Positions 21,163-47,502 of a DNA stretch of 64,000 nucleotides are shown here, piece by piece. The notes beneath the pieces are model-generated. The model saw only the letters and a program-made list of their open reading frames with translations. It ran no database searches and was not told the origin of the DNA. Each line of letters begins with the position of its first letter. Position 1 is the first letter of the stretch. A program made the translations under genes and the position numbers. Source of the DNA: Mobula hypostoma (Eukaryota); the NCBI RefSeq assembly GCF_963921235.1, contig NC_086108.1, forward strand, positions 4,402,001 to 4,466,000, read 5' to 3'.

Positions 21163-21340
21163 GTGTAGTGGTTAGGATAGTGCCAGTGACATGAGTTCAA
21201 TTCCCACCACTGCCTGAATGTTTTTCCCCGTTACCGCGTGGGTTTCCTCTTGGTGCTCTAGTTTCCTCCCACAGTCCAAAGACATTTGGTAGGTCAATTA
21301 ATCATTGTAAATTGTCCTGTGATTAGGCTAGGGTTAAATC
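21163..21340 (+). mobile_element. V-SINE-like (HE1-type) tRNA-derived SINE remnant
   Basis: B-box-like GAGTTCAATTCC and V-domain-like GCGTGGGTTTCCTC..GTTTCCTCCCACAGTCCAAAGAC. Related remnants lie near 23205-23410, 25420-25560 (-), 29830-29915 and 60915-61190. Confidence 0.6.
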
Positions 21341-22619
21341 GATGGGGGGGGGTGGTGGTGGTGGGAGGGCTCAGTGAGCTTAAATTATATTCAAATATAA
21401 TTCAAATATTTATGTTCAAATATTTTTTATATAATGTGGGGTTAACTTGAAGTCTATTTTTGGCTGGCACAGATTTGATGGGCCAAGTGGCCTCCTGTTT
21501 GAAAAAAATGTGTTTTCGCTGCAGGAAATTTCTATAAGAATTTGCGTCAGTGATTGTTGGTACATCTGGGTGCACTGGAGCTTGCTTTCAGCTTCAGAAC
21601 GGTATCACTAGGACTATTGACACCTGAAGCCCCTGCCTCACCTGTCTTGCTGCTGTCGAAATGCACTGGGCAATCATTCCACTGTCCCCTTCCCGTCCTG
21701 CCGTCTGTAATTTCGGGTTGAGATAAGACCCTGCAGTTCACAGCCCTGCTCTCAGTCGGCCCCTCTCCACCATGTCCTCCCTCCTGCACTCTGCGTCCAC
21801 CGATTTAAACATTCTTGCCTTCACTTTCAAACCCTCCTGTGCCCTTGTTCTTACCCCTTCCGGTATCTGCAAGCCCCCTGCATTCCTTCATTCCTCTCTT
21901 TGCCACTGGCATCTCCTCCTCCCCCTTAACCCCTCCCTATGACCCTTTTCCTCTCCCTCTTCCTATATCCCTCATCCTCTCTCTCTCTCCGTCCCTTCTC
22001 TCCCCACTGTGTTTCTCTCCCCCCCCCCCCACCGTGTGTGTGTGTATATCTCTCTCTCTTTCCTCCTCTCTGGGTATATCTCCCTCTTCAACCCCTTATC
22101 TCTGTTTCTCCCCCTCTCTCCAGCACCCACTCCCACGTCTCTGTTTCACTACCCCACCCCAAGGGGCCCAGCCCCAACCCATCGGAATCCCACACAGAAA
22201 CCCTCACTTCCTCCCCAGGACCCTTGTGGAATCCCTTCTGTCTGGGGCCCTGCCCCTCACCCCCCCCTTCCTCAGGGCTCTCTCTCTCCATCTTCCCCGA
22301 AATCCCTCTCCGCTTCCTTCTCGGAAATTCATACCTTCCCGGGGATTCTCTCCAGCCTGGATCAGCTCAGTCAACCGATATCCCACCGGGAAATCTGACG
22401 TTCGACTGATGAATTCTGTGGGAGCAGGCAGCTTGTTCTTTTAACTTTGTAAAATATCTCTGTGGCTAGGGTTCCTGCATGTTCAACGTTACTAAAATAT
22501 GGGCCAATGCTACATGGTGTTTCGAGATTGCAATTCAGTATGTTGCAATATAGTATGTTGATAGAACTCCTGCCCTGCATTTGGTACATAGACTGCTGCT
22601 GCATTGAGTTTGGAATTTA

Positions 22620-23200
22620 ATAAAACATGGGCTGGTGTTACAGTGTTCCTGATCTGTGTTTAGATGTTTAATAAATGCAGGCTGGTGTTTCTGGTCTGCG
22701 TTGGCATTATTTGGTAAAACACAGGCTGGTGTTACTGTGTTTCCAGTTTGTGTTTGGCATTTAGTAAAACACAGACTGGTGTTTGGGTATTTCTGGTCCA
22801 TATTTGGCATCTAATAAAACACAGGCAGGTGTTACTGTGTTTCTGGTCTGTGTTTGGCATGTAATAAAGCACAGACTAGTGTAGGGTGTTTCTGGTCTGT
22901 GTTTGGCATCTAGTAAAACACGGGCTGGTGTTACAGTGTCTCTGTTCTGCATTTGGCATTTGGTAAAGCATAGGTTGGTGTTATGGTGTTTCTGGTCTGT
23001 GTTTGACATCTAATAAACCACAGGCTGGTGTTAGTGTTTCTGGTATGTGTTTAGATGTTTAATAAAACACGGGCTGATGCTACAGTGTATCTGATCTGTC
23101 TTTGGCATCTGGTAAAACACAGGCTGGTGTTACTGTGTTTCCAGTCTGCGTTTGGCATCTAACAAAACACAGGTTGGTGTTAAGGTGTTTCCGGTCTGGG
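22620..23200. repeat. ~50-bp degenerate minisatellite, about 11-12 copies
   Basis: Approximate unit TGTTTCTGGTCTGTGTTTGGCATCTAGTAAAACACAGGCTGGTGTTACAG. Confidence 0.85.
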
Positions 23201-23417
23201 TTTCACGCGGTAGAGTAGCGGTTTGCCTAATGCTTTACAGTGCTAGCTGTGAGGTGGAGGTTTGACTCCTGCCACTGTCTGTAAGGAATTTGCACGTGAT
23301 TATGTGGGTTTCCTCCGGGTGCCACACACATTCCAAAGACAAACCGGTTAGTAAGTCGTGGGCACGCTGTGTTGGCGCTGGAAATGTGGTGACACTTGTA
23401 GGCTGCCCCCAGCTCAT

Positions 23418-24075
23418 GAATTTCAAGTTCCAGGGTGTCGACGTCTGTGAGGATCTGTCCTGGGCCCAACATAACGATACAGTCACAAAGCAGGCACCAC
23501 AGCAGCTATACTTCGTTAGGGACTTGAAGAGATTTGGTTTGTTACCAAAGACACTTGTAAATTTCTACAGATGAACCGTGGAAAGCATTCTAACTGGCTG
23601 CATCACCATCTTCTCTTGGGGAGGGGAGGAGGGCCACTGCACAGGATCAAAATAAGCTGCAGAAAGTTGTGAACTCAGTCAGATCCATCATGGGCACTAG
23701 CCTCCATAACATCCAGGACACCTTCAAAGAGCGGTGCCTCAGAAAGGCAGCATCCATCACTAAGGACCCCCATCATCCAGAACCTGCCCTCTTCTCATCG
23801 CTACCATCAGGGAGGAGGTACAGGAGCCTGAAGACACACACTCAATGATTCAGGAACAGATTCTTCCCCTCTGCCATCAGGTTTCTGAAGGGACATTGAA
23901 CCCATGAACACTACCTCACTACTTTTTTATTCTCTTTTTGCACTATTTATTTAATTTAACTTCTAAAATCTATTTCTTACTGTAATTTACTTTCTTTATT
24001 ATGTATAGCAATGTACTGCTGCCACATAGCAGCAAATTTCATCACATATGCCGTTGATATTAAAGCTGGTTCTGA
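23418..24075 (+). mobile_element. Decayed 3' end of a Rex1/Babar-type LINE
   Basis: Reads FKFQGVDVCEDLSW...QQLYFVRDLKRFGLLPKTLVNFYR...LPSGRRYRSLK, then a 3' UTR ending ATTAAAGCTGGTTCTGA. Confidence 0.75.
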
Positions 24076-25679
24076 CCCTCGGACTGTGTTGGGTGTTGAT
24101 ACAAAGGACACGTTTCACTGTGTGTTTTGGTGTGCCTGTGACAAATAAAGCTAATCTTTAATCTTTCAAACGCAGGACGCTGTTGCGGTGTTTCTGAGTG
24201 TGTGCAGCACTTAATTAAACACAGGCAGTGTGTCTGGTCTGCGTTTCAAGCCTGGTGCAGTGCGTGTAAGAGCGGTAATAGCCTGCACAGTGCAGTTTAT
24301 TATTCCCCAGTATAAGCAGCAGTCATTCTCCGAGGGGGCAAACCTCACCCATTGTGTGAGTGTCTGGAATGCAGTCAAATCCCGGCAGGAGGGATTTAGC
24401 AGCGCCTGAGGAACAAAAGACCTGCATTTCCATAGCACCATTCCAGATGCTTCAACACAGTTTGGAGCAGGAGAGAACACTGGTCACAGCAGCTGACTTG
24501 TCCAAAACTCTTCAACACCCCTAGACAACGGATCGAGCGCACATTTGCGGTTAGGGATCGCAGACTGGTTCCCCGCACAAAATGCTGAGCAAATTCAACA
24601 GGTCAGGCAGCATCCATGGAGAGGAATAAACAGTCGACGTTTCTGGATTAAACCCTTCGACAAAAGAAGCACAGAAATGAACCCTTCAGCTCAACTAGCT
24701 GTGCTGATAATCAAGTGTTCAGGCCTGAGACGTTGACTGTTTATTATCGACAGAGGTGCTGCCTGGCCTGCTGAGTTCCTCCAGCATGTTGTGTGTGTTG
24801 CTCTGGATTTCCAGTTCCTGCAGATTTTCTGGTGTTTTTTGGCTCTCTAGATTTTGTTTATAATTTATATTTCCATTCAACCCCTCATGTCTCTGCCAGT
24901 CCCCAGCACAGCCCCATTCACAGACCCTTCCAGTCCCCAGCACAACCCCATTCACAGGCTCTCTCATTTCCCAGCAAAACCCCTCCAGTTCCCAGAGCAA
25001 TTCACAGGGCCCTCCAGTTCCCAGCAAATCCCATTCACAGATCTCCAGTTCCCAGAGCAATCTCACTCACAACATGTAAGCAGACCATTCAACCCAACGA
25101 ATCGTTGCTGACCTAGACGTTAGACTAGTCCCATTTATCTGCGTCTGGCCCATATCCAATCTTAATCTTCACTATCCATGTCTCCGTGTCTTACGTCCAT
25201 CTTCTCCCTCTACTGATGTTCACGATGATGTTCTCCTTGTATCTTCCCTCGCAGTGACATCTCTGTCAAAAGGAACTGTGTTCTGTGGGCCCCCCCTCAA
25301 CCTGGTAAACTGTTCTCAGGTGTCACAGAGTGTCACAGTATTGAAATAGGCCCTAGCAACCACCTCCCCCCGCGAGATTCCACCCCTCTCCCACACACTC
25401 TGGATGGGAATTAACCCACACACCTGCTCATCATTGGGACAAGGGAGGAAACCAGAGTGCCCCAGGGGGAATCGTGCAAACTTCTCGCACAGACAGAATC
25501 GAACCCGGGCCTCAGGCACCATGAGGCACCGTCTTTGCCCACTGCGCCCCTGTGGCCACTGGAGAATTTCCCCCGTGGGACACAGACCTGTACGAGGGGT
25601 GAGTGAATGGCTGGTAGAGGGCAAAGGTTGCATCCAGGGGGCAGAACTGGGGCAGCACAGTAGTGTAGAGTTTAACACA

Positions 25680-28600
25680 CGGTGTTCTGGCTGTCAGTTG
25701 TGGGATTCCCAGGTGGACCGAGATGCAGCTGCTTAGAGACCGTATTAGGGACCTGGAGCTGTACCTCAATGATCTTCGGTTTGTTAGGGAAAGTGAGGAG
25801 GTGATAGACAGGAGCTACAAGGAGGTAGTCACTCCAGGGCTACAGGAGACAGGTAAGTGGGTGACTGTCAGGAGAGGGAAGGGGGAATGTCAGATACTGA
25901 AGAGGACCCCTGTGGCTGTCCCCCTCAACAATGAGTACTCCATTTTGAGTACTGTTGGAGGTAATGACCTACCTGGGGGAAGCAACAGCGGCTCTGTCTC
26001 TGACACTGAGTGGCTCAGAAGGGTAGGGAACGGAAGAGGATGGCAGTAGCTGTAGGAGACTCTGTAGTCAGGGGGTCAGACAGGCGATTCTGTGAGTGCG
26101 AGAAGCAAACACGGATGGTAGTTTGCCTTCCAGGTACCAGGGTCCAAGTTGTTTCTGAACATATCCACAATATCCTGAAAAGAGGGGGAGAGCAGCCAGA
26201 TGTCATGGTACATATTGGTACCAACGACATAAGAAGAAAAAGGGAAGAGTTCCTGAAAAAAGAATACAGGGAGTTAGGAGGGAAGCTGAGAAGCAGGAGC
26301 TCAAAGGCAGTAATCTCGGATTGCTGCCTGTGCCATGCGACAGTGAGGAGGAATAGATTGAGATGGCAGATAAATGCGTGTCTGAAGAATTGGAGCGGGG
26401 AGGGGGGGATTCAGATTTCTGGATCACTGGGGCCTCTTCTGGGGCAGGTGTGACTTGTACAAAAGGGACGGGTTGCACTTGAACCTGAGGGAGACCAATA
26501 TCCTTGCGGGCAGATTTACTGGAGCTGTTGGAAGTGGTTTAACCACATATGGCAGGGAGATAGAGCTGCGGATGAGCCAGCAGGTTTACAAGTAGATGAT
26601 GGGTGTAAGATGAATGTAAGGAAAGACAAGCCAATGACTGGGTACAAATGCAGACAGAACGAAGAGTTAAATTGTACCACAGAGATAAAATTCAGAAGGG
26701 CAAACAATGCAGGACTGAAGGTGCTGTGTTTAAATGTGCGTGGCATTCGGGATAAGGTGGACGAACACATGGCGCAATTAGAGATTGGTCAGTATGATGT
26801 TGTGGGCATCATTGAGTTGTGGCTGAAAGATCATAGTTGGGAGCTTAACATCAAAGGATATACTGTGTATTGAAAGGACAGGCAGTAAGGCATAGGTGGT
26901 GGTGTGGTTCCGTTGGTAAGAGATGGAATTACATCTTTAGAAAGAGGTGACATACGGTCTGAGAATGTTGAAACTTTGTGGGTGGAGTGAAGAAAATGCA
27001 AGGGTGAAAAAAACAATTATGGAAATCACAAATAAATAAATAAAAATAGGCACCCGTTAGTCTCGTGAGACCATGGATTTGTACCTTGGAAGGTTTCCAG
27101 GGCACAGGCCTGGGCAAGGTTGTATGGAAGACCGGCAGTTGCCCATGCTGCAAGTCTCCCCTCTCCACGACACCAATGTTGTCCAAGGGAAGGGCATTGG
27201 GGCCGATACAGCTTGGCACCAGTGTCGTCGCAGAGCAATGTGTGGTTAAGTGCCTTGCTCAAGGACACACCATGCTGCCTCAGCTGAGGCTCGAACTAGC
27301 GACCTTCTAAACTGACGCCTTAACCACTTGGCCATGCGCCATCACAGGAAATCATATATAGGCCTCCAAATAGTAGCCAAGATGTGGGGTTGAGATTGCA
27401 AAGGGAGCTGGAAAAGGCTTGTAATAAGGGTAATGTCACAATTGTGTTGGGGGACTTCAATATGAAAAGGGACTGGGAAAACCAGGTTAGTGTTGGATCA
27501 CAAGAGAGGGATTTTGTTGAATACCTACGAGAAGCAGCTTGTGCTTGAGCTTACTAGGAGAAAGGCTGTCTCAGATTGGGTGTAGTGTAATAAACCAGAT
27601 TTTATTAAGGAGCTTAACGTAAAGGAACCCTTGGGAGGCAGTGATCATAATATGATTGAATTCATACTGCAGTTTGAGAGGGAGAAGCATAACTCAGTAT
27701 TGCAATGGAATAAAGGGAATTGCAGAGGTATGAGAGAGGAGCTTGCCCAGATGGATTGGAGGAGGATACTGGTGGGGATGTTAGCAGAATAGAGGTGTCT
27801 GAAGTTTCTAGGAATAGTTCACAAGGCGCAGATAGATACGTCCCACAGAAGAAGTAGTTCTCAAATGGCAGGGGTAGGCAACTATGGCTGACAAGGGAAA
27901 TTGAGGACAGCATAAAAGCCAAGGAAAGGGTATATAAGGTAGCAAAAGTGAGTGGAAAGTTGGATGATTGGCAAACTTTTAAAAACAAAAGGCAACTAGA
28001 AGGGAAAAGATGAATTATGAGGGCAAATTAGCCAATAATATAAAGCAGGATACTGAAGGTTTTTCAGTTATATAAAGAGATTGTATATTGGACCATGGAA
28101 AATGATGCTGGTAGGGTAGTAACAGGGGACAAAGAAAAATTGCAGATAAATTTGATAAGTACTTTGCTTCAGTCTTCACTGTGGAAGACACTCGCTGTAT
28201 GCCAGGAGGTCCGTGAGTGTCAGGGAGCAGGAGTGAGTGCCAATGTTCTTACAAAGGAAAAAGTGCTCGGCAAACTGAGAGGTCTTAAGGTGGATAAGTC
28301 ACCTAGGCCAGATGGACTGCATCCCAGAATCCTGAGAGAGGTTGCTGAAGAGATAACGGATGCATTGGTCCGGATCTTTCAAGAATCACTTGATTCTGGC
28401 ATGGTCCCAGAGGACTGGAAGATTGCAAATGTCACTCCACTCTTTAAGAAGGGAGGAAGGCAAAAGAGAGGAAATTATAGGCCAGTTAAACTAACCTCAA
28501 TGGTTGGGAAAGTGTTGGAGTCTATTATTAAGGTTTCAGGGTACTTGGAGACTAATGATAAAATAAGTCAAAGTCAACATGGTTTCTGTAAAGAGAAATT

Positions 28601-29830
28601 TCCCTGACAAATCTGTTAGAGTTTTTTGAGGAAGTAACAAGCAGGGTGAATAAAGGAGAGGCAGTGGATGTCACTTACATGGATTTTCAGAAGGTGTTTG
28701 TTAAGGTGCAACACATGAGGCTGCTTAACGATAAAAGCCCTTGGCATTACAGGAAAGATACTGGCACGGATAGAGGAATAGCTGACAGGCAGGAGGCAGT
28801 GAGAGGGAATAAAGGGGCCTTCGCTGGTTGGCTGCCAGTGACTAGTGGTGTTCCTCAGGGGACAGTATTGGGACTGCTACTTTTCACATTGTTTGTCAGT
28901 GATTTAGATAATGAAATTGAAGTTTGCAGATGATACGGATGGAGGGGTAAGTTGTTGCTGAGGAAGCAATGTGATTGCAGCAGGACTTCGATAAACTGGA
29001 AAAATGGGCAAAAAAGTGGCAGATGGAATACTGTTTTGGGAAATGTACGATAATGCATTTTGGTAAAAGAAACAATAGTGTGGACTATTATCTAAGTGGA
29101 GAGAAGGTTCAAACATCAGATGTACAAAGTGACTTGGGAGTCCTTGTGAAAGACTCCCAGAAGGTTAATTCACAGGTTGAGTCTGTGGTCCAATAAATCC
29201 AATGTTGGCATTTATTTCAAGAGGAATAGAATATAAGAGCAAGGAGATAATGCTGAATCTTTATGTTAGGCTGCACTTGGAGTATTGTCAATAGTTTTGG
29301 GTTCCAAATCAGAAAGGATGTGTTGTCATCGGAGAGAGCCCAGAGGAGGTTCACAAGGATGATTCCAGGAATGAAGGGGTTAACATATGAGGAGTGTTTG
29401 GCAGCTTTGGGCCTGTACTGACTGGAATGTAGGAGAATGCATGGTGATCTCATTGAAACCTACCGAATGTTGAAAGGACTTGTTAAGATGGATGTGGAGA
29501 GGATGTTTCCTATGGTCGGGGTATCCAGAACTAGAGGGCACAGCCTCAAAATTGAGGGGTGACCTTTTAGAACAGAAGTAAGGAGGAATTTTTTTTAGCC
29601 AAAGAGTGGTGAATCTGTGAAATGCTCTGTTCAGACTGCGGTGGAGGTCAAGTCCGTGGGTATATTTAAAGTAGAAGTCGATAGATTCCTAATTGGTCAG
29701 GGCTTCAAGGGATACAGTGAGAGAGCAGGTGTATGGGGTTGAATGAGATCCGGGATCAGCCATGGTGAGATGGCGGAGTGGATTCGATGGGCTGAATGGC
29801 CTAATTCTGCTCCTGTGTCTGATCTTGTGG
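25680..29830 (+). mobile_element. Near-full-length decayed CR1 LINE (ORF1 leucine zipper + SGNH esterase; ORF2 APE endonuclease + RT), interrupted by a SINE
   Basis: ORF1 motifs QLLRDRIRDLE, VGDSVVRGSD, CLPG, VHIGTND. ORF2 motifs CLNVRGIRDK, YDVVGIIELW, KSPRPDGLHPR, PEDWKIANVTPLFKKG, NYRPV, SGVPQG. There are many stops and frameshifts, and a CR1-type 3' UTR ends ~29830. Confidence 0.9.
27029..27346 (-). mobile_element. tRNA-derived SINE (same family as 19104-19397) inserted in CR1 ORF2
   Basis: Reverse complement of the 19104 SINE, with an 8-bp TSD GGAAATCA (27021-27028 / 27347-27354). Confidence 0.85.
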
Positions 29831-29914
29831 TGTAACACTTTACAGTACAGGCAACCCCGATTCAATTCCCATCACTGCCTGAAAGGTGCTTGTACGTTCT
29901 TCCCCTGACTGCGT

Positions 29915-30230
29915 GGAAATCTACCAATCTCTGCCCCAAATATACATAAAGACTTGGCCTCCACAGCTTCCTGTGGCAAAGAGTTTCACAGATTCACCAC
30001 TGTCTGGCTGAAGAGATTCCCCCTCATCTCTATTCCAAATGGACGTCCCTCTAATCTGAGGCTGTGTCTTCTGGTCTTAGATTCCCCCATCATAGGAAAC
30101 ATCCAATGCAAGTCCACTCCATCTGGGCTTTTCAACGTTCCATAGGTTTCAATGAGATTCCCTCTCATTCTTCTGAATTCCAGTGAGTGCAGGCCCAGAA
30201 CCATCAAACACTCCTCATAGAATAAGCCTA
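29915..30230 (-). mobile_element. CR1 LINE 3' fragment
   Basis: Minus-strand ORF reads LGLHSLEFRRMRGNLIETY...KTRRHSLRLEGRPF. Confidence 0.8.
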
Positions 30231-31134
30231 TATGGGAGGAAAAGGTTAGATTAATCTTAGAATAGGTTAGAGGGTCAGCACAACATTATGGGCCAAAGGG
30301 CCTGTACTGTTGTGCAAAACCAATTAAACTCGTAATTGAATGCCTAACTAAACTGATCCCTTCAGCCTACACATTGGCCATGTAGCCACAGACTTCACAC
30401 TCTGGTGCTAGTGACTGGTGTTGGTTTGCAGTCATCAGTATTTGGACCGCTACTTTTCACGGTATACGTTAGTGATCCAGAAGATGAAATTGATGGCTTT
30501 GAGGCCAAGTTTGCGTACAAAACAAAGATATGTGGAAGGGGCTGGTAGTGTTCAGGAAGCAGAAGGACTTGGGCTGATTAGGGGAATGGGCAAAGAAGTG
30601 GCAGATGGAATACTGTGTTGGCCATGCCCTTTGGTAGAAAGAATAAAGGTGTAGACTATTTTCTAAATGGGGAGTGAATTCTGAAATTGGAGGTGCAAAG
30701 GGAGTTCTCGTGCAGGCTTCTCTGAAGCATCATCTGTAGGTTGAGTCGATGGTAAGGAAGGGCAAATGTACTTTCAGAGAACTGGAATATAAGAGCAAGG
30801 ATGTAATGCTGAGGCTTTATAAGGCACTGCTCAGACCACACTTGGGGTGTTCTGGATGTCTTGTCTTCTGATTTCGGAACTCAGAGCCCTCCGATGCATT
30901 GCAGAAAGACATCACATGGAAAGATCGCAAACAGGAGAAGATCTGCTGATGCTGGAAATCTGAGCAACACACACAAAATGCTGGAGGAACTCAGCAGGCC
31001 ACGCAGCCTCTGGGAAAAAACGTACTGCCAAAGGGTCTCAGCCCGAAACGTTGACTGTACGGTTTTCCATAGATGCTGCCTGGCCTGCTGAGTTCCTCCG
31101 GCATTTTGCGCCAGTTACATGGAAGGATTGGCTA

Positions 31135-31500
31135 GGTTGGAAGAGAGTCCCAAAGACATTGGGCAGGGGTGGGAGAGAGTCCTGGGACATTGGGCAGGGG
31201 TGGGAGAGAGTCCTGGGACACTGGGCAGGGATTTGAGAGGGTCCCAAAGACATTGGGCAGGGGTGGGAGAGAGTCCTGGGACATTGGGCAGGGGTGGGAG
31301 AGAGTCCTGGGACACTGGGCAGGGATTTGAGAGGGTCCCAGGGACATTGGGCAGGAGTGGGAGAGAGTCCTGGGACATTGGGCAGGGGTGGGAGAGAGTC
31401 CTGGGACATCGGGCAGGGGTGGGAGAGAGTCCTGGGACACTGGGCAGGGATTTGAGAGGGTCCCAGGGACATTGGGCAGGGCTGGAAGAGAGTCCTGGAG
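31135..31500. repeat. 31-bp G-rich minisatellite; more diverged copies resume at 35065-35540
   Basis: Unit CCTGGGACATTGGGCAGGGGTGGGAGAGAGT with a 31-nt period (31181, 31212). Confidence 0.88.
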
Positions 31501-34500
31501 GCAATGGAGGTGGTGGTGCACGTCAGCACAAATGACTTCGGGAAGATGAGAGACATTTTGCAGCGTGACTTCAGAGAACTCGGAAGAAGTCTGAAAAGCA
31601 GGACCTCCAGGGTGGTTATCTTGGGTTTGCTTCCAGTTCCTCGTGCTGGAGAGGACATGAACAGGGAGACAGGGGATCTGAATGTGTGGCTGAGGAGCTG
31701 GTGCAGGAGGCAGGGATTTAGTTTCTTGGACCACTGGGATCTGTTTTGGGGTAAGGATGAATTGTACAGAAGGGACGGGTTGCACCTTAACAGATGGGGG
31801 ACGAGCGTTCTGGCAGGCAGATTAGCCACTGCTACACGGGTGTGATTAAACTAAGTAGTGGGGGGGGGGGACAAACTGGAAATATAAGAATGGAGTTAAA
31901 GGGAATGAGAGAATAAGAAAAGTTAAGAAAGACAACAGATTTGACGGGGCAGAAAGATCAGGAAAGGATAGGAGAGTATGGGCAAGTGCAAAAGGAATCG
32001 ATGTGAAAGGTGAGGGGAGTAAAAGTATTATTTTAAAAGGATTAAAAGTATTATATATGAATGCACGGAGTATAAGAAATGAAGTGGATGAGCTTGAGGC
32101 TCAGTTGGAAATTGGCAGGTATGATGTTGTGGGAATAACAGAGACATGGCTGCAAGAGGACCAGGGCTGGGAAATGAATATTCAGGAATATACAGACAGG
32201 TTGGCAGAGGGGGTGGGGTGGCTCTGTTGGTGAGGAATGAAATTCAGTCACTTGCGAGGGGGACATAGAATCAGGAGATGTAGAGTCAGTATGGATAGAA
32301 CTGAGAAACTAAGGGCAAAAAGACCCTGATGGGAGTTATCTACAGGCTCCCAAACAGTAGCCTGGATATAGGGTGCAAGTTAAATCAAGAGTTAAAATTG
32401 GCATGTCGCAAAGGTAATACTACGGTTGTTATGGGGGATTTTAACATGCAGGTAGACTGGGAAAATCAGGTTGGTAATGGACCCCAAGAAAGGGAGTTTG
32501 TGGAACGCCTCAGAGATGGATTCTTAGAGCAGCTTCTATTAGAGCCTACCAGGGAGAAGGCAATTCTGGATTTAGTGTTGTGTAATGAGCCAGATTTGAT
32601 AAGGGAACTCGAGGTAAAGGAGCCATTAGGAGGTAGTGACCATAATATGATAAGTTTTCAAATACAATTTGAGAGGGAGAAGGGAAGATCGGAAGTGTCA
32701 TTATTACAGTTGAACAAAGGGGACTATGGACACATGAGGGAGGAGCTGGCCAAAGTTGACTGGAAAGATACCCTAGCAGGGATGACAGTGGAACAACAAT
32801 GGCAGGTATCTCTGGGAATAATACAGAAGATGCAGGATCAGTTCATTCCAAAGAGGAAGAATGGTTCTAAGGGTAGTAAGGGGCAACCGTGGATGACAAG
32901 GACAGTATAAAAATAAAAGAGAGGAAGTATAACATAGCAAGGATGAGCTGGAAGCCAGAGGATTGGGAAACTTTTAAAAAGCAACAGAAGATAACTAAAA
33001 AGGCAATTCGGGGAGAAAAGATGAGGTATGAAGGTAAGCTAGCCAAGAATATAAAGGAGGATAGTAAAAGGTCCCGACGAAGGGTCTCGGCCTGAAACGT
33101 CGACTGCACCTCTTCCTAGAGATGCTGCCCGGCCTGCTGCGTTCACCAGCAACTTTTATGTGTGTTGCTTGAATTTCCAGCATCTGCAGATTTCCTGTTG
33201 TTTGCGAGGATAGTAAAAGCTTCTTTAGGTATGTGAAAAGGAGAAAATTAGTTAAAACCAAAGTTGGGCCGTTGAAGACAGAAGTGGGTGAATTTATTCT
33301 GGGGAACAAGGAAATGGCAGACGAGCTGAACAGGTACTTTGGATCTGTCTTCACTAGGGAAGACACAAACAGTCGCCCAGATGTAATAGTGGCCAGAGGA
33401 CCTAGGGTAACGGAGGAACTGAAGGAAATTCGCATTAGGCAGAAAATGGTGTTGGGTAAACTGATGGGACTGAAGGCTGATAAGTCCCCGGGACCTGATG
33501 GTCTGCATCCCAGGGTACTTAAGGAGGTGGCTCTAGAAATCGTGGATGCATTGGTAATCATTTTTCAATGTTCTATAGATTCAGGATCAGTTCCTGCGGA
33601 TTGGAGGGCAGCTAATGTTATCCCACTTTTTAAGAAAGGAGGGAGAGAGAGAACAGGCAATTATAGACCAGTTAGTCTGCCATCAGTGGTGGGGAAGATG
33701 CTGGAATCAATTATAAAAGATGAAATAGTGGCACATTTGGATAGCAGTGGCAGGATAGGTCCGAGTCAGCATGGATTTACGAAGGGGAAATCATGCTTGA
33801 CTAATCTTCTGGAATTTTTTTGAGGATGTAACTATGAAAATAGACATGAGAAAGCCAGTGGATGTAGTGTACCTGGACTTTCAGAAAGGTTTTGATAAGG
33901 TCCCACATAGGAGGTTAGTGTGGAAAATTAGAGCAAATGGTATTGGGGGTAGGGTACTGACATGGATAGAAAATTGGTTGGCTGACAGGAAGCAAAGAGT
34001 AAGGATTAACGGGTCCTTTTCAGAATGGCAGGCGGTGACCAGTGGGGTACCACAGGGCTCGGTGCTGGGACTGCAGCAATTTACAATATACATTAATGAT
34101 TCAGATGACGGGATTAAAATAACATAAGCAAATTTGCAGATGACACAAAGCTGGGTGGCAATGTGAAATGTGAGGAGGATGTTATGAGAATGCAGGGCGA
34201 CTTGGACAGGCTGGGTGAGTGGGCAGATGCATGACAGATGCAGATTAATGTGGATAAATGTGAGGTTATCCACTTTGGTGGCAAGAACAGGAAGGTAGAT
34301 TATTATCTAAATGGAGTCAAGTTAGGAAAAGGGGAAGTACAACGAGATCTGGGTGTCCTTGTTCATCAGTCACTGAAAGCAAGCATGCAGGTACAGCAGG
34401 CAGTGAAGAAAGCTAATGGCATGCTGGCCTTCATAACAAGGGGAATTGAGTATAGGAGCAAAGAGGTCCTTCTGCAGTTGTGCAGGGCCCTGGTGAGACC

Positions 34501-35061
34501 ACACCCGGAGTATTGTGTGCAGTTTTGGTCTCCAAATTTGAGGAAAGACATCCTTGCTATGGAGGGAGTGCAGCGTGGGTTCACTGGGTTAATTCCAGGG
34601 ATGGCGGGAATGTCATATGTTGGAAGATTGGAGCGACTGGGCTTGTATGCACTGGAATTTAGAAGGATGAGAGGGGATCTGATTGAAACATATAAGATTA
34701 TTAAGGGATTGGACACGCTAGAGGCAGGAAACATGTTCCCGATGTTGGGGGAGTCCAGAACCAGAGGCCACAGTTTAAGAATAAGGGGTAGGCCATTTAG
34801 AACAGAGTTGAGGAAAAACTTTTTCACCCAGAGGGTTGTGGATCTGTGGAATGCTCTGCCTCAGAAGGCAGTGGAGGCCAATTCTCTGGATGCTTTCAAG
34901 AAAGAGATGGATAGAGCTCTTAAAGATAGCGGAGTCAAGGGATATGGGGAGAAGGCAGGAAAAGGGTACTGATTGTGGATGATCAGCCATGATCACAGTG
35001 AATGGCAGTGCTGGCTCGAAAGGCCGAATGGCCTACTCCTGCACCTATTGTCTATTGTCTA
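31500..35061 (+). mobile_element. 5'-truncated CR1 LINE (end of ORF1 esterase plus disrupted ORF2)
   Basis: ORF1 motifs VVVHVSTND...RDGLHLN. ORF2 motifs YMNARSIRN, VGITETW, VMGDFN, GGSDH, KSPGPDGLHPR, QHGFTKGKSCLTNL, YLDFQK, SGVPQGSVLG, FADD. The tail is (CTATTGT)n. Stops and frameshifts are present. Confidence 0.93.
33071..33205 (+). mobile_element. 135-bp Penelope-like terminal-repeat insertion beginning with a minimal hammerhead motif, with 14-bp TSD
   Basis: TSD GAGGATAGTAAAAG at 33057-33070 and 33206-33219, splitting CR1 ORF2. The insert starts GTC-CCGACGA-AGGGTCTCGGCCT-GAAA-CG-TC-GAC. Confidence 0.8.
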
Positions 35062-35703
35062 ATAGCCAAAGGTGGAGGAGGGTCCTGAGGAGATTGGGAG
35101 AGGGTCCTGAGGAGATTGACCAGGACTGGCAAAGAGTCTCGGAGAGGGGGTGGGAGAGAGCTCCAGAGACATCAACTAGGAGTGTGAGCGAGCATCCTGA
35201 TTGGATTGGCTGGGAGTGGGAGAGGTCCTGGAGTGTTTAGTGAGGGTTCCAAAAGGTTTTGGGGAGAGGTGAGGGGGTTCCAGAGACATTGGGCAGGGGT
35301 TGGAGTGAGACCCTGAGACATTGGACAAGGGTGGGAGAGAGTCTCAGGGACATTGGACAGGAATGGGAGAAGGTCCCAGGGATATTGGACAGGAATGGGA
35401 GAAGGTCCAAGAGACATTAAGCAGGGGTAGGCAAGGGTCACTGGGATGTTGGGCAGGAGAGGGAGAGGATCCCAGAGGAACTGACAAGGGGTAGGAGAGG
35501 ATCCCCAAAGTATTGTTTGGGGGGTGGGAGTGAAGGTCCCGGAGGGACTGAGAGCATGGGTAGGTTTGAACACAAGGAGGATGATTTTAAAACTGTGGGT
35601 CTGATTGATGAAAGCCGGTCAACTGTTTGACTTTCAAACCTGAGCCGACCAGTGTTTGGGGCGCAGGAGTCCAGCGGTGGTCTGGAGTTGGTGGCCTAGT
35701 CTG

Positions 35704-36012
35704 CTGGAAGCGCACAGGCCTGTGTACCCTGGTCAAACACAAGCAGCTGAAAGTACACGGGTCTGTGTTCCCTGGTCAAACACAAACAGCTGGAAGCGTA
35801 CGGCTCTGTGTTCCCTGGTCAAACACAAGCAGCTGGAAGTACACGGGTCTGTGTTCCCTGGTCAAACACAAGCAGCTGGAAGCGCACGGGTCTGTGTACC
35901 CTGGTCAAACACAAGCAGCTGAAAGTACACGGGTCTGTGTTCCCTGGTCAAACACAAGCAGCTGGAAGCGCACGGGTCTGTGTTCCCTGGTCAAACACAA
36001 GCAGCTGGAAGT
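35704..36012. repeat. 43-bp minisatellite, about 7 copies
   Basis: Unit CTGGAAGCGCACGGGTCTGTGTTCCCTGGTCAAACACAAGCAG with starts at 35704, 35747 and 35790. Confidence 0.9.
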
Positions 36013-36574
36013 ACTTTGCACGGACAGACCCTGCTGTGCTGGGCGTGCCTGCCCCCCCTGGCTAAACACTCCCCCCACCCCCTCCCACACCTCTGCTGTT
36101 TCTGAGAGCCAGCACACTGCCTCTGGCTCACCCACACAATCTCACACTCAATTCTTCCCTGCGGGAAGATATTCCACCCACCCCCCAACCCGACAGGGAG
36201 CCGCTGGGCAGTAATCAGGCACACTTGTACACAGCAACTCAGCTGTCGGCACTGTAGTTACTTTTAACCCTTTCACAGCCCTCCCACCCTTCAGCACTGA
36301 CCTGAAACTAACTTACATCTGATGTTCTCAGAAATAATTTTATTCGCGTAGTTGAAGATTGGCTTTACTTGTCACTCGTACATCGACACATACAGTAGAA
36401 CGCGCCTTTTGGCGTCAATAAGCAATACGGTGTTCTGAAGTGTGATGGCAGAGGGAAGAAGCTGGCCCTAATCGTTGAGTGTCTCCTCCCTGATGGTAAT
36501 AACATGATTGGGGCGTGTCAGAGGCAGACAAAACTGGAGGAGAGCGCAGACTGTTCTGGAATGTTCTACAACTT

Positions 36575-37100
36575 GGTGTGAGAAGGCAAGGGTATAATGT
36601 TGAGGCTCCATAAGGCATTGGTCAGACCACACATGGAGTATTGTCAGCTGTTTTGGGCCCTTATCTAACGAATGATATGCTGACATTGGAGAGCTACAGT
36701 GGAGGTTCACGAAAATGATTCCGGTATTGAAAGTTTTCATCTGAGGAGCGTTTGATGGCGCTGGGCTATACGCACTGGAGTTTAGAAGAATGGGGGGGGG
36801 GATCTCATTCAAGCGTATCGAATGGTGAAAGGCCTAGATAGGGTGGATGTGGAGAAGATTTTTCCTATAGCGAGGAGTCTAAGACCAGAGGACACAGCCT
36901 CAGAATAGAGGGACGTCCATTTAGATTGGAGATGAGGAGGAACTTCTTTAGCTAGAAGGTGGTGAATGTGTGGAATTAATTGCCACAGGCGGCTGTGGAG
37001 GCCAAGTCACTGGGTATGTTTAAGGCAGAGGTTGATAGGTTCAAGAGTAGGCTTGATGGGCCTAATAGCCTAGTTCTGCTCCTATGTCTTATGGTCTAAG
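36575..37100 (+). mobile_element. Decayed CR1 3' fragment
   Basis: Similar to the 3' ends of the other CR1 copies (GTCAGACCACAC..GAGTATTG; GAGATGAGGAGGAACTTCTTTAGC; tail CTGCTCCTATGTCTTATGGTCT). Confidence 0.75.
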
Positions 37101-39649
37101 GCACCACAAAAAACACGTTAAAATTATGTAGAATCTTTAGTGATGAGGCTAAATCTCCAAAGGTCTGGGATTAAAAGCTGAAATTCTGACTTGATGATGA
37201 TGAGTGAAATTTCATCGACTCCACTCAGTGGAACTCCGTGTCCTGAGTATTCTGACCAGTGAAGCCTCTGAGTTTTCATCAGGGGCCCCCACCACCCAGG
37301 CCATGCTCCCTTCTCATCGCTGCCATCAGGAAGAAGGTACAAGAGCCTCACACCACCAGGTTCAGGAACAATTATCACCTCTCAACCATCAGGCTCCTGA
37401 ACCAAAGGGGATAACTTCACTTAACTTCATTTGCCCCATCATTGAGATGTTTTCACAACTTTCAAAGACTCTTCATCTCATGTTCTCAATATTTATTGCT
37501 TATTTATTTATTCTTTTTTTCTTTCTTACTGCATTTACACAGTTTGTTTGCAGTTTACAGTTCCTGATGTTTACAGTTCAATAGGTTTCAGTAGGTACAT
37601 TTAATGTCAGAGAAATGTATACAATATACATCCTGAAATTCTTTACAGTAACTATTCTATAGATTTGCTGAGTATACCCGCAGAAAATGAATCTCAGGGT
37701 TCTATGTGGTGACATATATGTACTCTGATAATAAAATTTACTTTGAACTTTGAACTAATGTGCAATGCAATCCCAGCATTGCACCCACCACTCTCTGCGT
37801 AAAAAAACAACCTTGCCTCTAATATTCCCCCCCCACATACTTTCCTCTGATCATGTTGAAATTATGGCCCCTGGTATTAGCCATTCCTACCCAGGCTGTC
37901 CACTCGATTTAAGCCTTTTATCATTTGTACACCTCTTGTACTTGTGTGTGGCGGCATCTGCCTGGATCAAAGTTCAAAGTAACTTTACAATCAAAGTATG
38001 TATTTGCTACCATGCACTACTTTGAGTTTCATTTCCCTACAAGCAAGTACGGGAGAAAAGAAAAGCAGTAGAATTTATGAAAACTGTATATGAACAAAGA
38101 CTGACGAACTCACAAAGGTTTTCTCTCCACTCCAATTCTTATTCTCTCTCCTTTCCCCCTTTTCCTTCCCCTTCCTCTCTTTCATTCCCTCCTCCGATCC
38201 TGCCTTCTTTTCTCCCACCCCCACCCCTTCCCCCTAGGTTCCTGGGGCCCCAGCCTAATGTCAGTGAGAATCCCGCAAACCCTTTCCCTCTCTCTTCACA
38301 GCGTTGCTGTCGATGAATACCAGGCGCGGTTCTACGGCAATCTCCCTGCACCGGTTATCCTTTAACCCCAGCCTCGTGAGGTGAAACTCTCACAGGCTCT
38401 CCTTGGCTCCCTGCCGAATACTTTAAATAGTTTTTTTCTCTACGCTCCAATCCCCCTTTATATATTTTAGCTGGGTTTACATCTGCCTGGCACATGTCAA
38501 TAATTGAAGCCATTTTGCATTCCAAGGTACAGATGGCAAAATGCCTGAACCTGTAAGTATTGTAAGTTCCTCAGATTGAAAGATTTTGCATCTATCTAGA
38601 TGCCTTCGTTGAGGTCAAAATTCCAGTTGTGGAAACTCCTTGTCTCTGAAATGGCCTCCCCATCTCCCCCCACGGCACACTTGAAAGTTGCTGGGTTGTT
38701 ATCAAAGCGAGCTAGGGTTGAATGGCCGGCCTCACTCCGTGCTGCAAGATGCACCCCAGCGGTTATGAACAGAAGGGATTTAATCCCAAACCAGGACAGG
38801 GAATATTACTGGTGTTTTTTTGTAATATATTTTACTGTTGTCGGATGTACCCAGTGACAAACCTTTTGTCAGTATTTTCCCGTTCCCATGAACTGGGGAG
38901 GTGGGTCATGGTAGTGTAACGCGATGATTCTCTGTTGCACATCGATAAAAGTTGGCCAGCAATTTTTCAGGCAGGTTAGCTCTCGTTAAACACCTCGGGT
39001 GTTCTATATAGGACCTGTTCTAAGTCCTATTCAACAACCATGTCTCGATGTCAGTCTTCACTGGCTCCCACTCCAACAGCCCCTCTGCTATTAAATCCCC
39101 ACACTAGTCCTTCAACTCCCACACTACAGCCCTCACTCTGCCTTCTCCACTCTCCCCCAACACTGGTTACTCCATCAGACATGGGCCTAGCGGCCTACCT
39201 CTCGCAGCCTAGTTCTCCTCCCTCACCATATTCCTCCCCACCATTACTGTATCCACAAGAAGCACAGCCTCAAAAGGGTAACGTCTGCCACAAACGACCC
39301 CTACCATATGGGCCATCTTCTTGCATCTTCTTGCATCTATCCATGGCCAGAGGCTACAGTAGTCCGAAGGTTCAACACCAGCTCTTGAACCAACTGACAG
39401 AACTTGAAACTCTGTCTCAGTATAGTAACAGTATGTTCACTTTGCATGAAAAAGGCCCCTTTTCTTCAAATTGTATGATTTTTGGAAAAAACCTGAATAT
39501 TGTATGTTTGTTTAATGGGACTGACTCACTCACCTGGCCCAATACTCCAGAATACCCTCAGCAAATCCCAACACTCTTCCTCTCTCACTGTCCTTCCCTA
39601 GTCTTTACTCTTACCCTTGCCCTCTCTCACTCCCTCCCCTACCCCTTCC

Positions 39650-40210
39650 TCTTCCAACCCCTCCCACCCCCACACCTCCCCTTCACCCCTCACCCTTCCC
39701 CTTCCCCCTTCCCCTTCCCCCTTCCCCTTCCCCCTTCCCCCTCACCCTTCCCCTTCCCCTTTCCCACTCCCCCTCCTCTTCCCCTTCCCCCTTCCCCCTC
39801 ACCCTTTCCCCCTCCCCTCCTCTCTCCCCTCCCCCTCCCCCTCCCTCTTCCCTCTTCCCCCTCACCCTTTCCCCTCCCCCTCCCTTCCTACCCCTCTCCC
39901 CTCCCTCCTTCCCCCTCCCCCTGCCCCTCCTCTCTTCCTGTCCTGCCTCCCCCTCCTCTCCCTCACTCACGCTCTCCCTCTCTCTGCCTCTCACTCGCGC
40001 ACACTCTCTCACTCGCACTCTCCCTCTCCCTGTCTCTCACTCGCACTCACTCTCTCTCGTACTCTCCCTCTCGCGCTCTCTCTCACTCACACACTCTCTC
40101 TCGCTGTCTCTCTCTCTCTCTGGCACTCTCTCACTCTTGCTCTTTCCCCCTCTCTCTCTTTCCCACTCCCGCTCTCGCACTCTCTCTCTCACTCACACTC
40201 TCTCTTTGCT
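39650..40210. repeat. Polypyrimidine low-complexity tract, (CCCCTT)n then (CT)n/(CTCA)n
   Basis: Seen directly in the sequence. Confidence 0.9.
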
Positions 40211-40261
40211 TCATTGGAATGCCTCTCTCTACTTCGCTGAGCTTTGTGTTACCTGGCCCCC

Positions 40262-41120
40262 TCTCCCCCTCCCCTTCAAATCCACCGGCCTCCCCTTCAA
40301 TCCCACCGGCCTCCCCTTCAAACCCACCGCGGCCTCCCCTTCAAATCCACCGGCCTCCCCTTCAAATCCACCGGCCTCCCCTTCAAACCCACCGGCCTCC
40401 CCTTCAAACCCACCGCGGCCTCCCCTTCAAATCCACCGGCCTCCCCTTCAAATCCACCGCGGCCTCCCCTTCAAATCCACCGGCCTCCCCTTCAAATCCA
40501 CCGCGGCCTCCCCTTCAATCCTATCAGCCTCCCCTTCAATCCTATCAGCCTCCCCTTCAATCCTATCGGCCTCCCCTTCAATCCTATCGGCCTCCCCTTC
40601 AAACCCACCGCGGCCTCCCCTTCAAACCCACCGCGGCCTCCCCTTCAAACCCACCGGCCTCCCCTTCAAATCCACCGGCCTCCCCTTCAATCCTATCGGC
40701 CTCCCCTTCAAATCCACCGCGGCCTCCCCTTCAAACCCACCGCGGCCTCCCCTTCAAATCCACCGGCCTCCCCTTCAAAACCACCGGCCTCCCCTTCAAA
40801 CCCACCGCGGCCTCCCCTTCAAATCCACCGGCCTCCCCTTCAATCCTATCGGCCTCCCCTTCAAACCCACCGGCCTCCCCTTCAATCCCACCGGCCTCCC
40901 CTTCAAACCCACCGGCCTCCCCTTCAAACCCACCGCGGCCTCCCCTTCAAATCCACCGGCCTCCCCTTCAATCCCACCGGCCTCCCCTTCAAACCCACCG
41001 CGGCCTCCCCTTCAAATCCACCGGCCTCCCCTTCAATCCTATCAGCCTCCCCTTCAAACCCACCGGCCTCCCCTTCAAACCCACCGGCCTCCCCTTTAAA
41101 CCCATCGGCCTCCCCTTTAA
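40262..41120. repeat. 21/23-bp minisatellite (GGCCTCCCCTTCAAAYCCACC[GC]), about 40 copies, derived from a minus-strand CR1 3' segment
   Basis: Contiguous with the CR1 remnant at 41120-41560 (-). That frame reads VEARGLGVFKGEADGFKGEAGGFEGEA..., so the CR1 'FKAEVD' segment is reiterated. Confidence 0.85.
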
Positions 41121-41560
41121 ACACACCCAGTCCCCTGGCCTCCACAGCCATCCGTGGCAATGAATTCCACAGATCCAGCACCCTCTGATTAAAGAAAGTC
41201 CTCCTCCTCTCTACTGTCAAGGGACACCCCAGTATTCTGAGGCTGCACCCTTTGGTCCTAGGTTCCCCCGCTATCGGAAACACCGTCTCCACATCCACTC
41301 CATCAAGGCCTTTCAACCTTTGATGGGTTTCAATAAGATCCTTCCCTTCCTCCTCCCCCATTCTTCTAAACTCCCGCGAGTACAGACCCAGAGCCATCAT
41401 ATATTAACCCTTTCATTCCCGGGATCATTCCCGTGAGCCTCTTCAATGTCAGCACTTCCTCTCATAGACAAAGGGCCTGAAACTACTCACAAGGTTCCAA
41501 GTGCAGCCTAACCAATGTCTCATAAATCCTCAGCGCCACATCCTTGCTTTTATATTCCAT
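41120..41560 (-). mobile_element. CR1 3' fragment
   Basis: Minus-strand ORF reads MALGLYSREFRRM...PRTKGCSLRILGCP..FFNQRVLDLWNSLP. Confidence 0.8.
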
Positions 41561-41734
41561 CACCACCCCGAGGCAAGAGAACAGGTTCCAGAAGCCTCAA
41601 GGAGAACGAGCGAGTCCCCCTCATACTCCTTTCTATTGACAGGTGAGCCCTCTGTAAGACGTTTATGTGATTATGAAACACCTAGATGGAGTAGACAGCC
41701 ATTTTCTTTCTCCCAGTGTTGGAATATCTAATAG

Positions 41735-42043
41735 CAGAGAGAGTATGGATATGGCAAAGTTATTTCCCATGGTAGGGGAGTCTAGGACAAGAAGGCACGA
41801 CTTCAGGATTGAAGGACGTCCATTTAGAACAGAGATGCGGAGAAATTATTTTAGTCAGAGGGTGGTGAATCTATGGAATTTGTTGCCACGAGTGGCTGTG
41901 GAGGCCAAGTCATTGGGTGCATTTATGGCAGTGGTAGATAAGTTTTTGATTAGTCATGGCAGCAAAAGGAATGGGGAGAAGGCAGGGGAGTGGAGATGAC
42001 TGGAGGAATTGGATCAGCCATGATTGAATGGCAGAGCAGACTC
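41735..42043 (+). mobile_element. CR1 3' fragment; its 3' UTR resumes at ~43777 after a Rex1 insertion
   Basis: Reads LFPMVGESRTRRHDFRIEGRPFRTEMRRNYFSQRVVNLWN. The UTR breaks after GCAGAGCAGACTC and continues as GGCCTACTTCTGCTCCTAT at ~43784. Confidence 0.75.
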
Positions 42044-43776
42044 ATAGTCATAGTCATAGTCATACTTTATTGATCCCGGGGGAAATTGGTTTTCGTTACA
42101 GTTGCACCATAAATAATAAATAATAATAAAACCATAAATAGTTAAATAGTAATATGTAAATTATGCCAGTAAATTATGAAATAAGTCCAGGACCAGCCTA
42201 TTGGCTCAGGGTGTCTGACTCTCCAAGGGAGGAGTTGTAAAGTTTGATGGCCACAGGCAGGAATGACTTCCTATGACGCTCTGTGCTGCATCTTGGTGGA
42301 ATGAGTCTCCGGCTGAATGTACTCCTGTGCCCACCCAGTACATTATGTAGTGGATGGGAGACATTGACCAAGATAGCATGCAACTTGGACAGCATCCTCT
42401 TTTCAGACACCACCGTCATAGAGTCCAGTTCCATCCCTACAACATCACTGGCCTTACGAATGAGTTTGTTGATTCTGTTGGTGTCTGCCACCCTCAGCCT
42501 GTTGCCCCAGCACACAACAGCAAACATGATAGCACTGGCCACCACAGACTCGTAGAACATCCTCAGCATCGTCCGGCAGATGTTAAAGGACCTCAGTCTC
42601 CTCAGGAAATAGAGACGGCTCTGACCCTTCTTGTAGACAGCCTCAGTGTTCTTAGACCAGTCCAGTTTATTGTCAATTTGTATCCCCAGGTATTTGTAAT
42701 CCTCCAGCATGTCCACACTGACCCCCTGGATGGAAACAGGGGTCACCGGTACCTTAGCTCTCTTCAGGTCTACCACCAGCTCCTTAGTCTTTTTCACATT
42801 AAGCTGCAGTTAATTCTGCTCACACCATGTGACAAAGTTTCCTACCGTAGCCCTGTACTCAACGTCATCTCCCTTGCTGATGCATCCAACTATGGCAGAG
42901 TCATCTGAAAACTCCTGAAGATGACAAGACTCTGTGCAGTAGTTGAAGTCCGAGGTGTAAATGGTGAAGAGAAAGGGAGACAAGACAGTCCTCTGTGGAG
43001 CCCCAGTGCTGCTGATCACTCTGTCGGACACACAGTGTTGCAAGCACACGTACTGTGGTCTGCCAGTCAGGTAATCAAGAATCCATGATACCAGGGAAGC
43101 ATCCACCTGCATCGCTGTCAGCTTCTCCCCCAGCAGAGCAGGGCGGATGGTGATGAACGCACTGGAGAAGTCAAAAAACATGACCCTCACAGTGCTTGCT
43201 GGCTTGTCCAGGTGGGCGTAGACACGGTTCAGCAGGTAGACGATGGCATCCTCAATTCCTAGTCAGGGCTGGTAGGTGAACTGGAGGGGATCTAAGTGTG
43301 GCCTGACCATAGGCCGGAGCAGTTCCAGAACAAGTCTCTCCAGAGTCTTCATGATGTGGGAGGTCAATGCCACCGGTCTGTAGTCGTTGAGGCCGCTGGG
43401 GCAGGGTGTCTTCGGCACAGGGACGAGGTAGGACATCTTCCACAGTACAGGAACCCTCCGGAGCCTCGGGCTCATGTTGAATACATGGCGAAGTACTCCA
43501 CATAGCTGAGGGGCACAGGCTTTGAGCACCCTGGTACTGACACCATCCAGTCCTGCAGCCTTGCTTGGGTTGAGATGTTTCAGCTGTCTTCTCACCTGTT
43601 CAGCTGTGCAGCCCACCGTGGTGGTTTCATGTGGGGAAGGGGTGTAATCATGAGAGCAGGGTGGGGACTGTGAGGAGGGGTAGGAGGGGAGAGTGGAATA
43701 TGTGTTGGTTGGGGGCCGACAACAGATGGCTCATGTGGGGGTTGGGCAGGGGTCACAATGTCACATCTGTTAAAGA
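42044..43776 (-). mobile_element. 5'-truncated Rex1/Babar LINE with RT domain (disrupted)
   Basis: Motifs NPSKAAGLDG, LNDYRPVALTSHIMKTLERL, LDPLQFTY, VMFFDFSSAF, TGAPQRTVLSPFLFTIYTSD, FSDDSA, KKTKELVVD, RLYFLRRLRSFNI. The 3' tail is (GACTAT)n. Confidence 0.9.
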
Positions 43777-44649
43777 CCCAAGTGGCCTACTTCTGCTCCT
43801 ATATATCAAGGTCCTAACTTTAAAGAAGGTGTTTGTGGCAAGTTGTCTTTTTGCACAGAATGTGCTGTGGGGGGTGATGGTAGCGGCAGATATGATAGCA
43901 GTGTTTAAGAGGCTCTTCGATACACAGATGTGCAGAGATTGGTGGAATATTTCATTCAGAGTTTCAGGAGGTTTGGTTTGTCACCAAAGACACTTGCAAA
44001 TTTCTACCAAAGTACCGTGAAGGACATTCTAACTGGCTGATATGTAGTTGGGGGTGGGTGGGGATGGAGTTGCACAAGATTGGAAAAAGGTGCGGAGAGT
44101 TGTAAACTTAGTCCACTCCAAGCCTCCGTAGAAATTCCACAGATTCACCACTCTCTGGCTAAAGAAATTCCTCCTCATCTCTGTTCTCAAGGGACGCCCC
44201 TCTATTCTGCAGCTGTGCCTTCTTGTCTTAAATATCCAGGATATCTTCAAGGAGCAATGCCTCAAAAAGGCAGCATCCATCATTAAGGACCCCCACCACC
44301 CAGGACATGCCCTCTCTTCATTGCTACCATCAGGGAGGAGGTACAGGAGCCTGAAGACCCACACTCAACGATTCAGGAACAGCTTCTTCCCCTCTGCCAC
44401 CCGATTTCTGAATGGACATTGAACCCATGAACACAACCTCACTACTTTTGCACTACTTATTCCATTTAATTTTATATATCTATTTCTTATTGTAATTCGC
44501 AGCTTTTATTTTTACTGTACTGCTGCCACAAAGACAGCAAATTTCTCAACAAATGTCAGTGACATTAAACCTGATTCTGATTCTGAACATTGGGTCGCGA
44601 GAAGGTCACGGTCAAAGAAACTTATTATCAAAGTACACACAGTCTACGT

Positions 44650-46178: not shown

Positions 46179-46189
46179 ATGCGGAGAAA

Positions 46190-47380: not shown

Positions 47381-47502
47381 CCCCTCCCTGGACCGGCCCA
47401 TGCACTCCAGTTTTTATGAAAAACTGTACATAAACAGACAAAGACTGACAAACGACCAATGTGCGAAAGAAGACAAACTGTGCAAATAAAACATAATAAA
47501 AT

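Follow-up and report, generated by a model that had tools for sequence, protein, structure and literature searches.

A short insert with a minimal hammerhead motif in a decayed CR1 LINE of Mobula hypostoma, probably a solo terminal repeat of a Penelope-like family abundant in rays

Minimal hammerheads are known from Penelope-like elements (PLEs): the passages used here of Cervera and De la Pena 2014 (PMC4209133) place them in the pseudo-LTRs of metazoan PLEs, report that minimal hammerheads, even when intact, show no activity as monomers and little as dimers, and put the end of the D. virilis Penelope intron at the 5' limit of helix I. For Poseidon of Anolis (PAc), the relevant passages of Frangieh et al. 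2024 (PMC11167929) describe a hammerhead that needs protein to cut in vitro and is dispensable for insertion. A 2026 preprint (bioRxiv 10.64898/2026.07.22.740005), in the part drawn on here, treats non-LTR retrozymes as non-autonomous PLE derivatives and includes one sampled chondrichthyan. Selected passages also record PLE copies that sit between target-site duplications (TSDs) but lacking terminal repeats (PMC2377424) and inverted arrangements in PLE insertions (PMC8557442, PMC3846280). No cartilaginous fish stands among the listed rows of Table S1 and Fig. S3 of PMC4209133. Our search of the literature, as distinct from Repbase and Dfam, found no dedicated description in sharks or rays of the family treated below, which may already be catalogued in those two databases.

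The insert analysed here lies in a window of 64,000 nucleotides of Mobula hypostoma (the whole stretch of DNA under study). The features of the locus are as follows.

20504..49726, plus strand: DPF-family gene, intron 1, between its CDS exons at 20472-20503 and 49727-49887
31500..35060 (ends approximate), plus strand: decayed CR1-type LINE with an SGNH-esterase ORF1, an AP-endonuclease and RT ORF2, and several stops and frameshifts (Pfam, translation)
33057..33070, plus strand: left TSD copy, in CR1 ORF2 sequence, 64% A+T (flank comparison)
33071..33205, plus strand: 135-bp insert, probably a piece from the 3' terminus (pseudo-LTR-like) of a ray repeat of very high abundance (family homology)
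33071..33104, plus strand: minimal type-I hammerhead motif (published descriptor with position 4 freed)
33075, plus strand: C at core position 4, U in relatives (proteins of relatives, window copies)
33206..33219, plus strand: right TSD copy (flank comparison)

The sequence GAGGATAGTAAAAG occupies 33057-33070 and again 33206-33219 (14 bp, 100% identity), and the two copies sit at both ends of the repeat-family homology. The 3' boundary of the insert is uncertain by 1-2 nt, because another family copy continues with letters that match the start of the right TSD copy. When 31501-35100 was shuffled 1000 times with dinucleotides preserved, 13 of the shuffles had some exact 14-mer repeat at a spacing of 60-400 bp. 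Removal of the insert and one TSD copy restores the CR1 ORF2 frame NIKEDSK-SFFRYV, the site is present once in a paralogous CR1 copy at about 53545 of the window, and contigs skipping exactly 149 nt were found in all three public runs with matching contigs (5, 5 and 1 contigs). Taken together, these three observations identify the 14-bp repeat as a true TSD, and the 135-bp insert between perfect duplications described in an earlier note on this DNA is borne out by the letters, the LINE frame, the paralogue and the contigs alike. That note had also called the insert recently mobilised, which is plausible given the perfect TSD and the 1-3 differences from the majority letters over 74 testable nt, although no orthologous empty allele was seen. 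The empty-site joints in the contigs probably derive from paralogous CR1 copies and were rejected as evidence for dating the insertion.

The insert interrupts ORF2 of a dead CR1 LINE, a point absent from the earlier note, and lies in sense within intron 1 of its host gene, as had been claimed: the two CDS exons splice in frame and match Pfam DPF1-3_N (E 1.5e-26). This identifies the host as a DPF-family gene; the name DPF1 given to it before is a presumed paralogue assignment.

We scanned the window with a regex-and-pairing recoding of the Penelope-like minimal-hammerhead descriptor of Fig. S7 in PMC4209133, and the first 34 nt of the insert matched it except for a C at U4. The motif runs GTC (33071-73), CCGACGA (33074-80), an extra A (33081), GGGT/CTCG/GCCT (33082-93) and GAAA (33094-97), followed by CG, TC with C17 at 33101, and GAC (33102-04); both the letters and the scan uphold the positions assigned to these parts before. 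Cleavage is predicted after C17 (33101). Stem I has 3 bp, or 4 counting the last TSD base, stem II has 4 bp and a 4-nt loop, and a palindromic ACGT (33097-33100) replaces helix III. The strict descriptor found no site in the window, the core CUGANGA being replaced by CCGACGA in the insert; a stem I of 3-7 bp, a stem II of 3-7 bp with a loop of 3-10 nt, and GAAANNUH are all present. With position 4 freed, the insert was the sole site in the window, and any match at all appeared in three of 300 shuffled 48.7-kb windows. Three traits that lie outside the descriptor are present too, namely the A between 9 and 10.1 (33081), the palindromic 15.2-16.2 and a U-rich 5' flank.

It is highly improbable, in our judgement, that the insert is an ordinary SINE, mobilised by a LINE, whose likeness to a hammerhead arose by chance. 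LINE TSDs span a range that includes 14 bp, as here. A search of Rfam with the insert gave two weak matches at E up to 10, neither of them a hammerhead, and covariation was lacking: none of seven stem pairs had a two-sided change among 11 window pieces, which are few and degraded, and 74% of stem cells were paired in the window copies, a value below all shuffles. These points would suit a chance likeness, but the rarity of relaxed matches in shuffled windows, the additional traits just listed, a 3' end with neither poly(A) nor a CR1-like tail, and the existence of inverted and tandem forms of the family all speak against it. Exact-pattern scans of metagenome contigs, viral contigs and prokaryote genomes gave no loci, as expected for a vertebrate repeat.

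The published minimal hammerheads are among the nearest known systems. As far as the passages of PMC4209133 go, these share with the insert and its family the type-I order, a short stem I, the extra nucleotide at 9/10.1, the absence of helix III, the palindromic 15.2-16.2, the U-rich 5' flank, a majority of single dispersed copies and close pairs on opposite strands; the Fig. S3 rows for Acropora, Ixodes and a sea urchin have the core and the C-G-U-C junction as in the insert. Unlike those hammerheads, the insert carries C4 and a G-U pair at 10.1-11.1, and the ray family is without a flanking ORF in the window. Held to the strict definition, the insert departs at both U4 and 11.1; its relatives conform at U4. 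We take its motif to resemble a PLE minimal hammerhead in its working and to derive from one. The earlier assignment to the Penelope type is supported by the descriptor match (barring position 4), the extra A and the palindrome.

The same stretch had been said to fold as a type-I hammerhead. The motif match stands, but the minimum-energy fold differs, pairing CGACG with CGUCG at -10.5 kcal/mol against -6.0 for the hammerhead, and the 10.1-11.1 pair is G-U, not G-C. The hammerhead fold has a probability of about 0.0002 in the monomer ensemble, with tertiary energy outside the model, and the folding z of the 135-mer is -1.21. Setting position 4 to U moved the probability from 0.00025 to 0.00062; U4 hardly alters the predicted folding, so the misfolding is not specific to C4. 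Minimal cores usually do not appear as hammerheads in predicted minimum-energy folds.

A profile search of the window returned ten other family pieces at E<0.01 (11 with the insert); six of the pieces had served to make the profile, and one further match at E 0.43 was left out. By BLASTN, six window pieces are 75-82% identical to the insert. The pieces include the following.

14679..15037, plus strand: older family copy with a pyrimidine-rich 5' extension of ~220 bp and C4; an inverted scrap (14629-14663) lies at its 5' side
24574..24842, both strands: second inverted pair of family pieces
30914..31129, both strands: inverted pair (minus 31016-30927, plus 31030-31108) bounded by an 11-of-13 direct repeat, a probable older TSD
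52326..52480, both strands: third inverted pair of family pieces
55737..56093, plus strand: older family copy with the same 5' extension and U4
62397..62465, minus strand: further decayed family piece

Family pieces thus occur in four inverted arrangements in the window, one with the 11-of-13 flanking repeat, and a search for direct repeats (at least 8 bp) around family pieces found them at two of the eight intervals tried. Two DNA-type runs gave the insert a median summed contig depth of 48x (X1) and 42x (X5) that of the flanking CR1, a ratio that is not a copy number, the flanking CR1 being itself a repeat and the runs coming from relatives, near or distant. These depths show the family to be an extremely abundant ray repeat, a point that the earlier note lacks. 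A depth ratio of 697x in run X14 was rejected as a sign of expression, as the RNA type of that run is a guess and the data are contigs.

Read antisense, the insert gives an open frame with matches among NCBI gene models from Mobula hypostoma, M. birostris and Hypanus sabinus, which by itself would assign the window to a ray or a near relative. In four Mobula models (P0001, P0002, P0005 and P0006, matching window 33073-33204 on the minus strand) the family forms antisense terminal coding pieces; the models are Tim8A X3, TNFRSF5-like X2, STAC3 X4 and galectin-9-like X3, and the pieces are either real exonisation or an annotation artefact. A further match, P0003 (Hypanus sabinus LOC132385723), reads at least four head-to-tail hammerhead-bearing units of ~118 nt each, with a periodicity of 118 residues per three units. 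Judged from its sequence, this array is retrozyme-like and could form dimers in cis. P0004, a Vibrio repeat protein without an aligned stretch, was dropped as a chance match.

These proteins, which read the family antisense, also bear on position 4. U4 is implied in all five informative stretches (three proteins) from three ray species, the same two Mobula species and H. sabinus; the residue over position 4 is G in the window and, in the relatives, R in four stretches or, in another frame, Q in one. P0005 and P0006 are outside this count, as their alignments end before position 4. Among the five other window copies with homology over position 4, three have U, one C and one A; three further window rows with T there, probably flank, are not included. 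A public-contig table of other letters was rejected as evidence on this position, having no entries within ~30 nt of the element ends. The U4 of the relatives indicates that the family core is intact and that the insert is a variant copy, and it makes likely the earlier suggestion that C at U4 may impair this hammerhead. C4 may nonetheless mark a minor lineage, given that the window copy at 14903 has it too. At 11.1 the insert has U, whereas six of nine other window pieces with a letter there have C; P0001 implies U as in the insert, P0002 and P0003 imply C, and U at 11.1 seems to characterise a subfamily.

Alternatively, the insert could be a ribozyme active in the intron, cutting the DPF pre-mRNA as a dimer in trans with the many other family transcripts; we consider this scarcely credible. 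The sense orientation in intron 1 would suit such a role, as would the insert being the only near-descriptor site in the window and the plentiful family pieces in the run guessed to be RNA. C4 need not be fatal, as a U4C variant retains enough activity in vivo for a viroid (PMC3088659). Against this stand C4 itself, the G-U pair at 10.1-11.1, the shortened stem I and the very low ensemble probability of the fold in the monomer; eight of nine Xenopus dimers were uncut in the reported part of bioRxiv 10.64898/2026.07.22.740005, and the insert is located in a dead LINE without sign of selection. Most likely the insert does not cut its host pre-mRNA, because it is a single copy with C4 and without the outer part of stem I, and intact minimal hammerheads already show the monomer inactivity and weak dimer activity described above.

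Two window copies extend further upstream, and their 5' extensions are 77% alike and 81-82% pyrimidine; the loose ends upstream of 33071 in public contigs are also pyrimidine-rich, with an agreement of only 0.4. In the family, a CAG-ending pyrimidine tract lies just ahead of stem I, and stem I itself has 5 bp in the copy at 14903. The insert is shorter than some family members and its start lies inside stem I. PLEs can carry a 3' tail of 30-40 bp; the 3' loose ends of the ray family in public contigs fall at several positions (33144-33206). Truncation at the 5' end, pieces in inverted orientation, partly tandem forms and a hammerhead close to the 3' end together point to a Penelope-like anatomy, and our preferred reading is that the insert is probably a solo, 5'-truncated pseudo-LTR (3' terminal repeat) of an EN+ Penelope-like family massively amplified in rays. 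Of the two origins proposed in the earlier note, the two copies that reach ~220 bp upstream and the pyrimidine-rich loose ends favour a truncated Penelope terminal repeat over a separate non-autonomous element.

We infer that the mobilising protein was of the Penelope type, how the insertion proceeded, and that the insert is inactive; the steps are modelled on the Anolis Poseidon work. An intact copy would have supplied the RT/GIY-YIG protein that bound element RNA, and the endonuclease would have nicked an A+T-rich site within the old CR1 LINE. Reverse transcription would then have begun near the 3' end of the element and halted some 135 nt on, once it had passed the hammerhead, and the 14-bp duplication would stem from repair of the staggered cut. 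The hammerhead would be cargo of the pseudo-LTR, functional only as a dimer through the palindromic ACGT and probably assisted by protein. With its start 31 nt ahead of the predicted cut site, the insert is not a ribozyme-cut product, and its template was uncut there. The insert argues that insertion can proceed from uncut RNA, in agreement with the 2024 in vitro result. The described passages on Poseidon PAc (PMC11167929) likewise concern a vertebrate PLE with a pseudo-LTR hammerhead, A+T-rich targets and an internal RT start; its ORF starts at stem II, whereas the ray insert is without the start of a long ORF.

Several observations bear on how far the comparison with PLEs can be taken. Passages of PMC2377424, PMC3846280 and PMC8557442 describe 5' truncation, inverted 5' pieces, a TSD around the whole and retroelement targets, as in the ray copies; the TSDs in those passages, rotifer ones among them, are 8-10 bp, shorter than the 14 bp of the insert, which counts against the Penelope reading. 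It also counts against that reading that, within the 64-kb window, none of the family copies adjoins a GIY-YIG/RT ORF. A GIY-YIG-like remnant (CxxC...YIGET, window 57163-57288, minus strand), a high-scoring Atlas lead, probably derives from a Penelope-like ORF. It has no Pfam match, is not joined to the terminal repeat and aligns with family copies no better than shuffles do; protein searches with the remnant and with the 5' extension, which are weak tests, gave no matches.

Further points against the Penelope reading are the lack of compensatory changes in the window copies and the many family junctions 0-6 nt from 33071, a pattern that suits a defined short unit no less than random truncation. 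The insert might on that account belong to a dedicated non-autonomous element of 120-135 nt, either a SINE-like Penelope parasite or the monomer of a non-LTR retrozyme, with an RNA that begins at stem I through a TSS or splice acceptor and with amplification as a unit of its own; we think this unlikely, while giving it more weight than the two alternatives above. Seven of the 12 best junction rows, out of 58, fall at 33070/33071 with only 1-6 extra letters, several window pieces start within the hammerhead, and the P0003 array has a unit of similar size. The helix I end of the D. virilis intron (PMC4209133, passages as above) has a parallel here in the CAG-ending tract before stem I, and the preprint, as far as the part used here shows, derives tandem retrozymes from pseudo-LTRs, one chondrichthyan among them. 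However, two window copies reach ~220 bp further upstream, a self-cleaved monomer would begin at 33102 and not at 33071, and the junction rows are a small, reference-bounded subset with the top support, drawn from contigs that cannot show RNA ends. If a splice acceptor or TSS, and not cleavage, fixed the 5' end at stem I, such a unit could account for the huge copy number and the tandem arrays in place of random truncation, though we doubt it.

The family has a likeness to non-LTR retrozymes: the relevant part of bioRxiv 10.64898/2026.07.22.740005 describes short hammerhead units akin to pseudo-LTRs that occur as dispersed monomers and tandem arrays. Those elements need at least two consecutive hammerhead units, with monomer ends that self-cleavage creates and with circular RNA, whereas the insert is a single unit between TSDs; we rejected it as a non-LTR retrozyme by this tandem definition and also because its start is not at the cut site but 31 nt 5' of it.

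On the solo pseudo-LTR reading the single locus is of little import, being probably an inert repeat copy in a dead LINE in an intron, and the insert is a known kind of element and an ordinary catch. Its family has some value, standing among the most abundant sequences of ray genomes and running antisense through several NCBI gene models. TSD-bounded copies mark where Penelope reverse transcription starts and stops, and a census of such copy ends could address the role of the Penelope hammerhead in vivo.

The window has other repeats of note. Upstream of the DPF-family gene lies a 13-kb tandem array (window 1-13211) of about 414 copies of a 32-bp unit with 83% matches. Two 553-bp copies (42050-42602 and 57770-58322), 97.8% identical, represent the end of an RT-encoding non-LTR element of a young family, of which a long remnant lies at about 42200-43730 on the minus strand. 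We take 58635-59593, from its translation, to be a Tc1/mariner-like transposase remnant. The same three-unit 95-bp tandem repeat occurs at 15714-16049 and 47870-48204, 32 kb apart and 96% identical. Minisatellites with units of 32-61 bp lie at 17083-18115, 35703-36014, 47021-47378 and 51221-51701, and the 61-bp array overlaps a LINE-derived repeat found elsewhere in the window.
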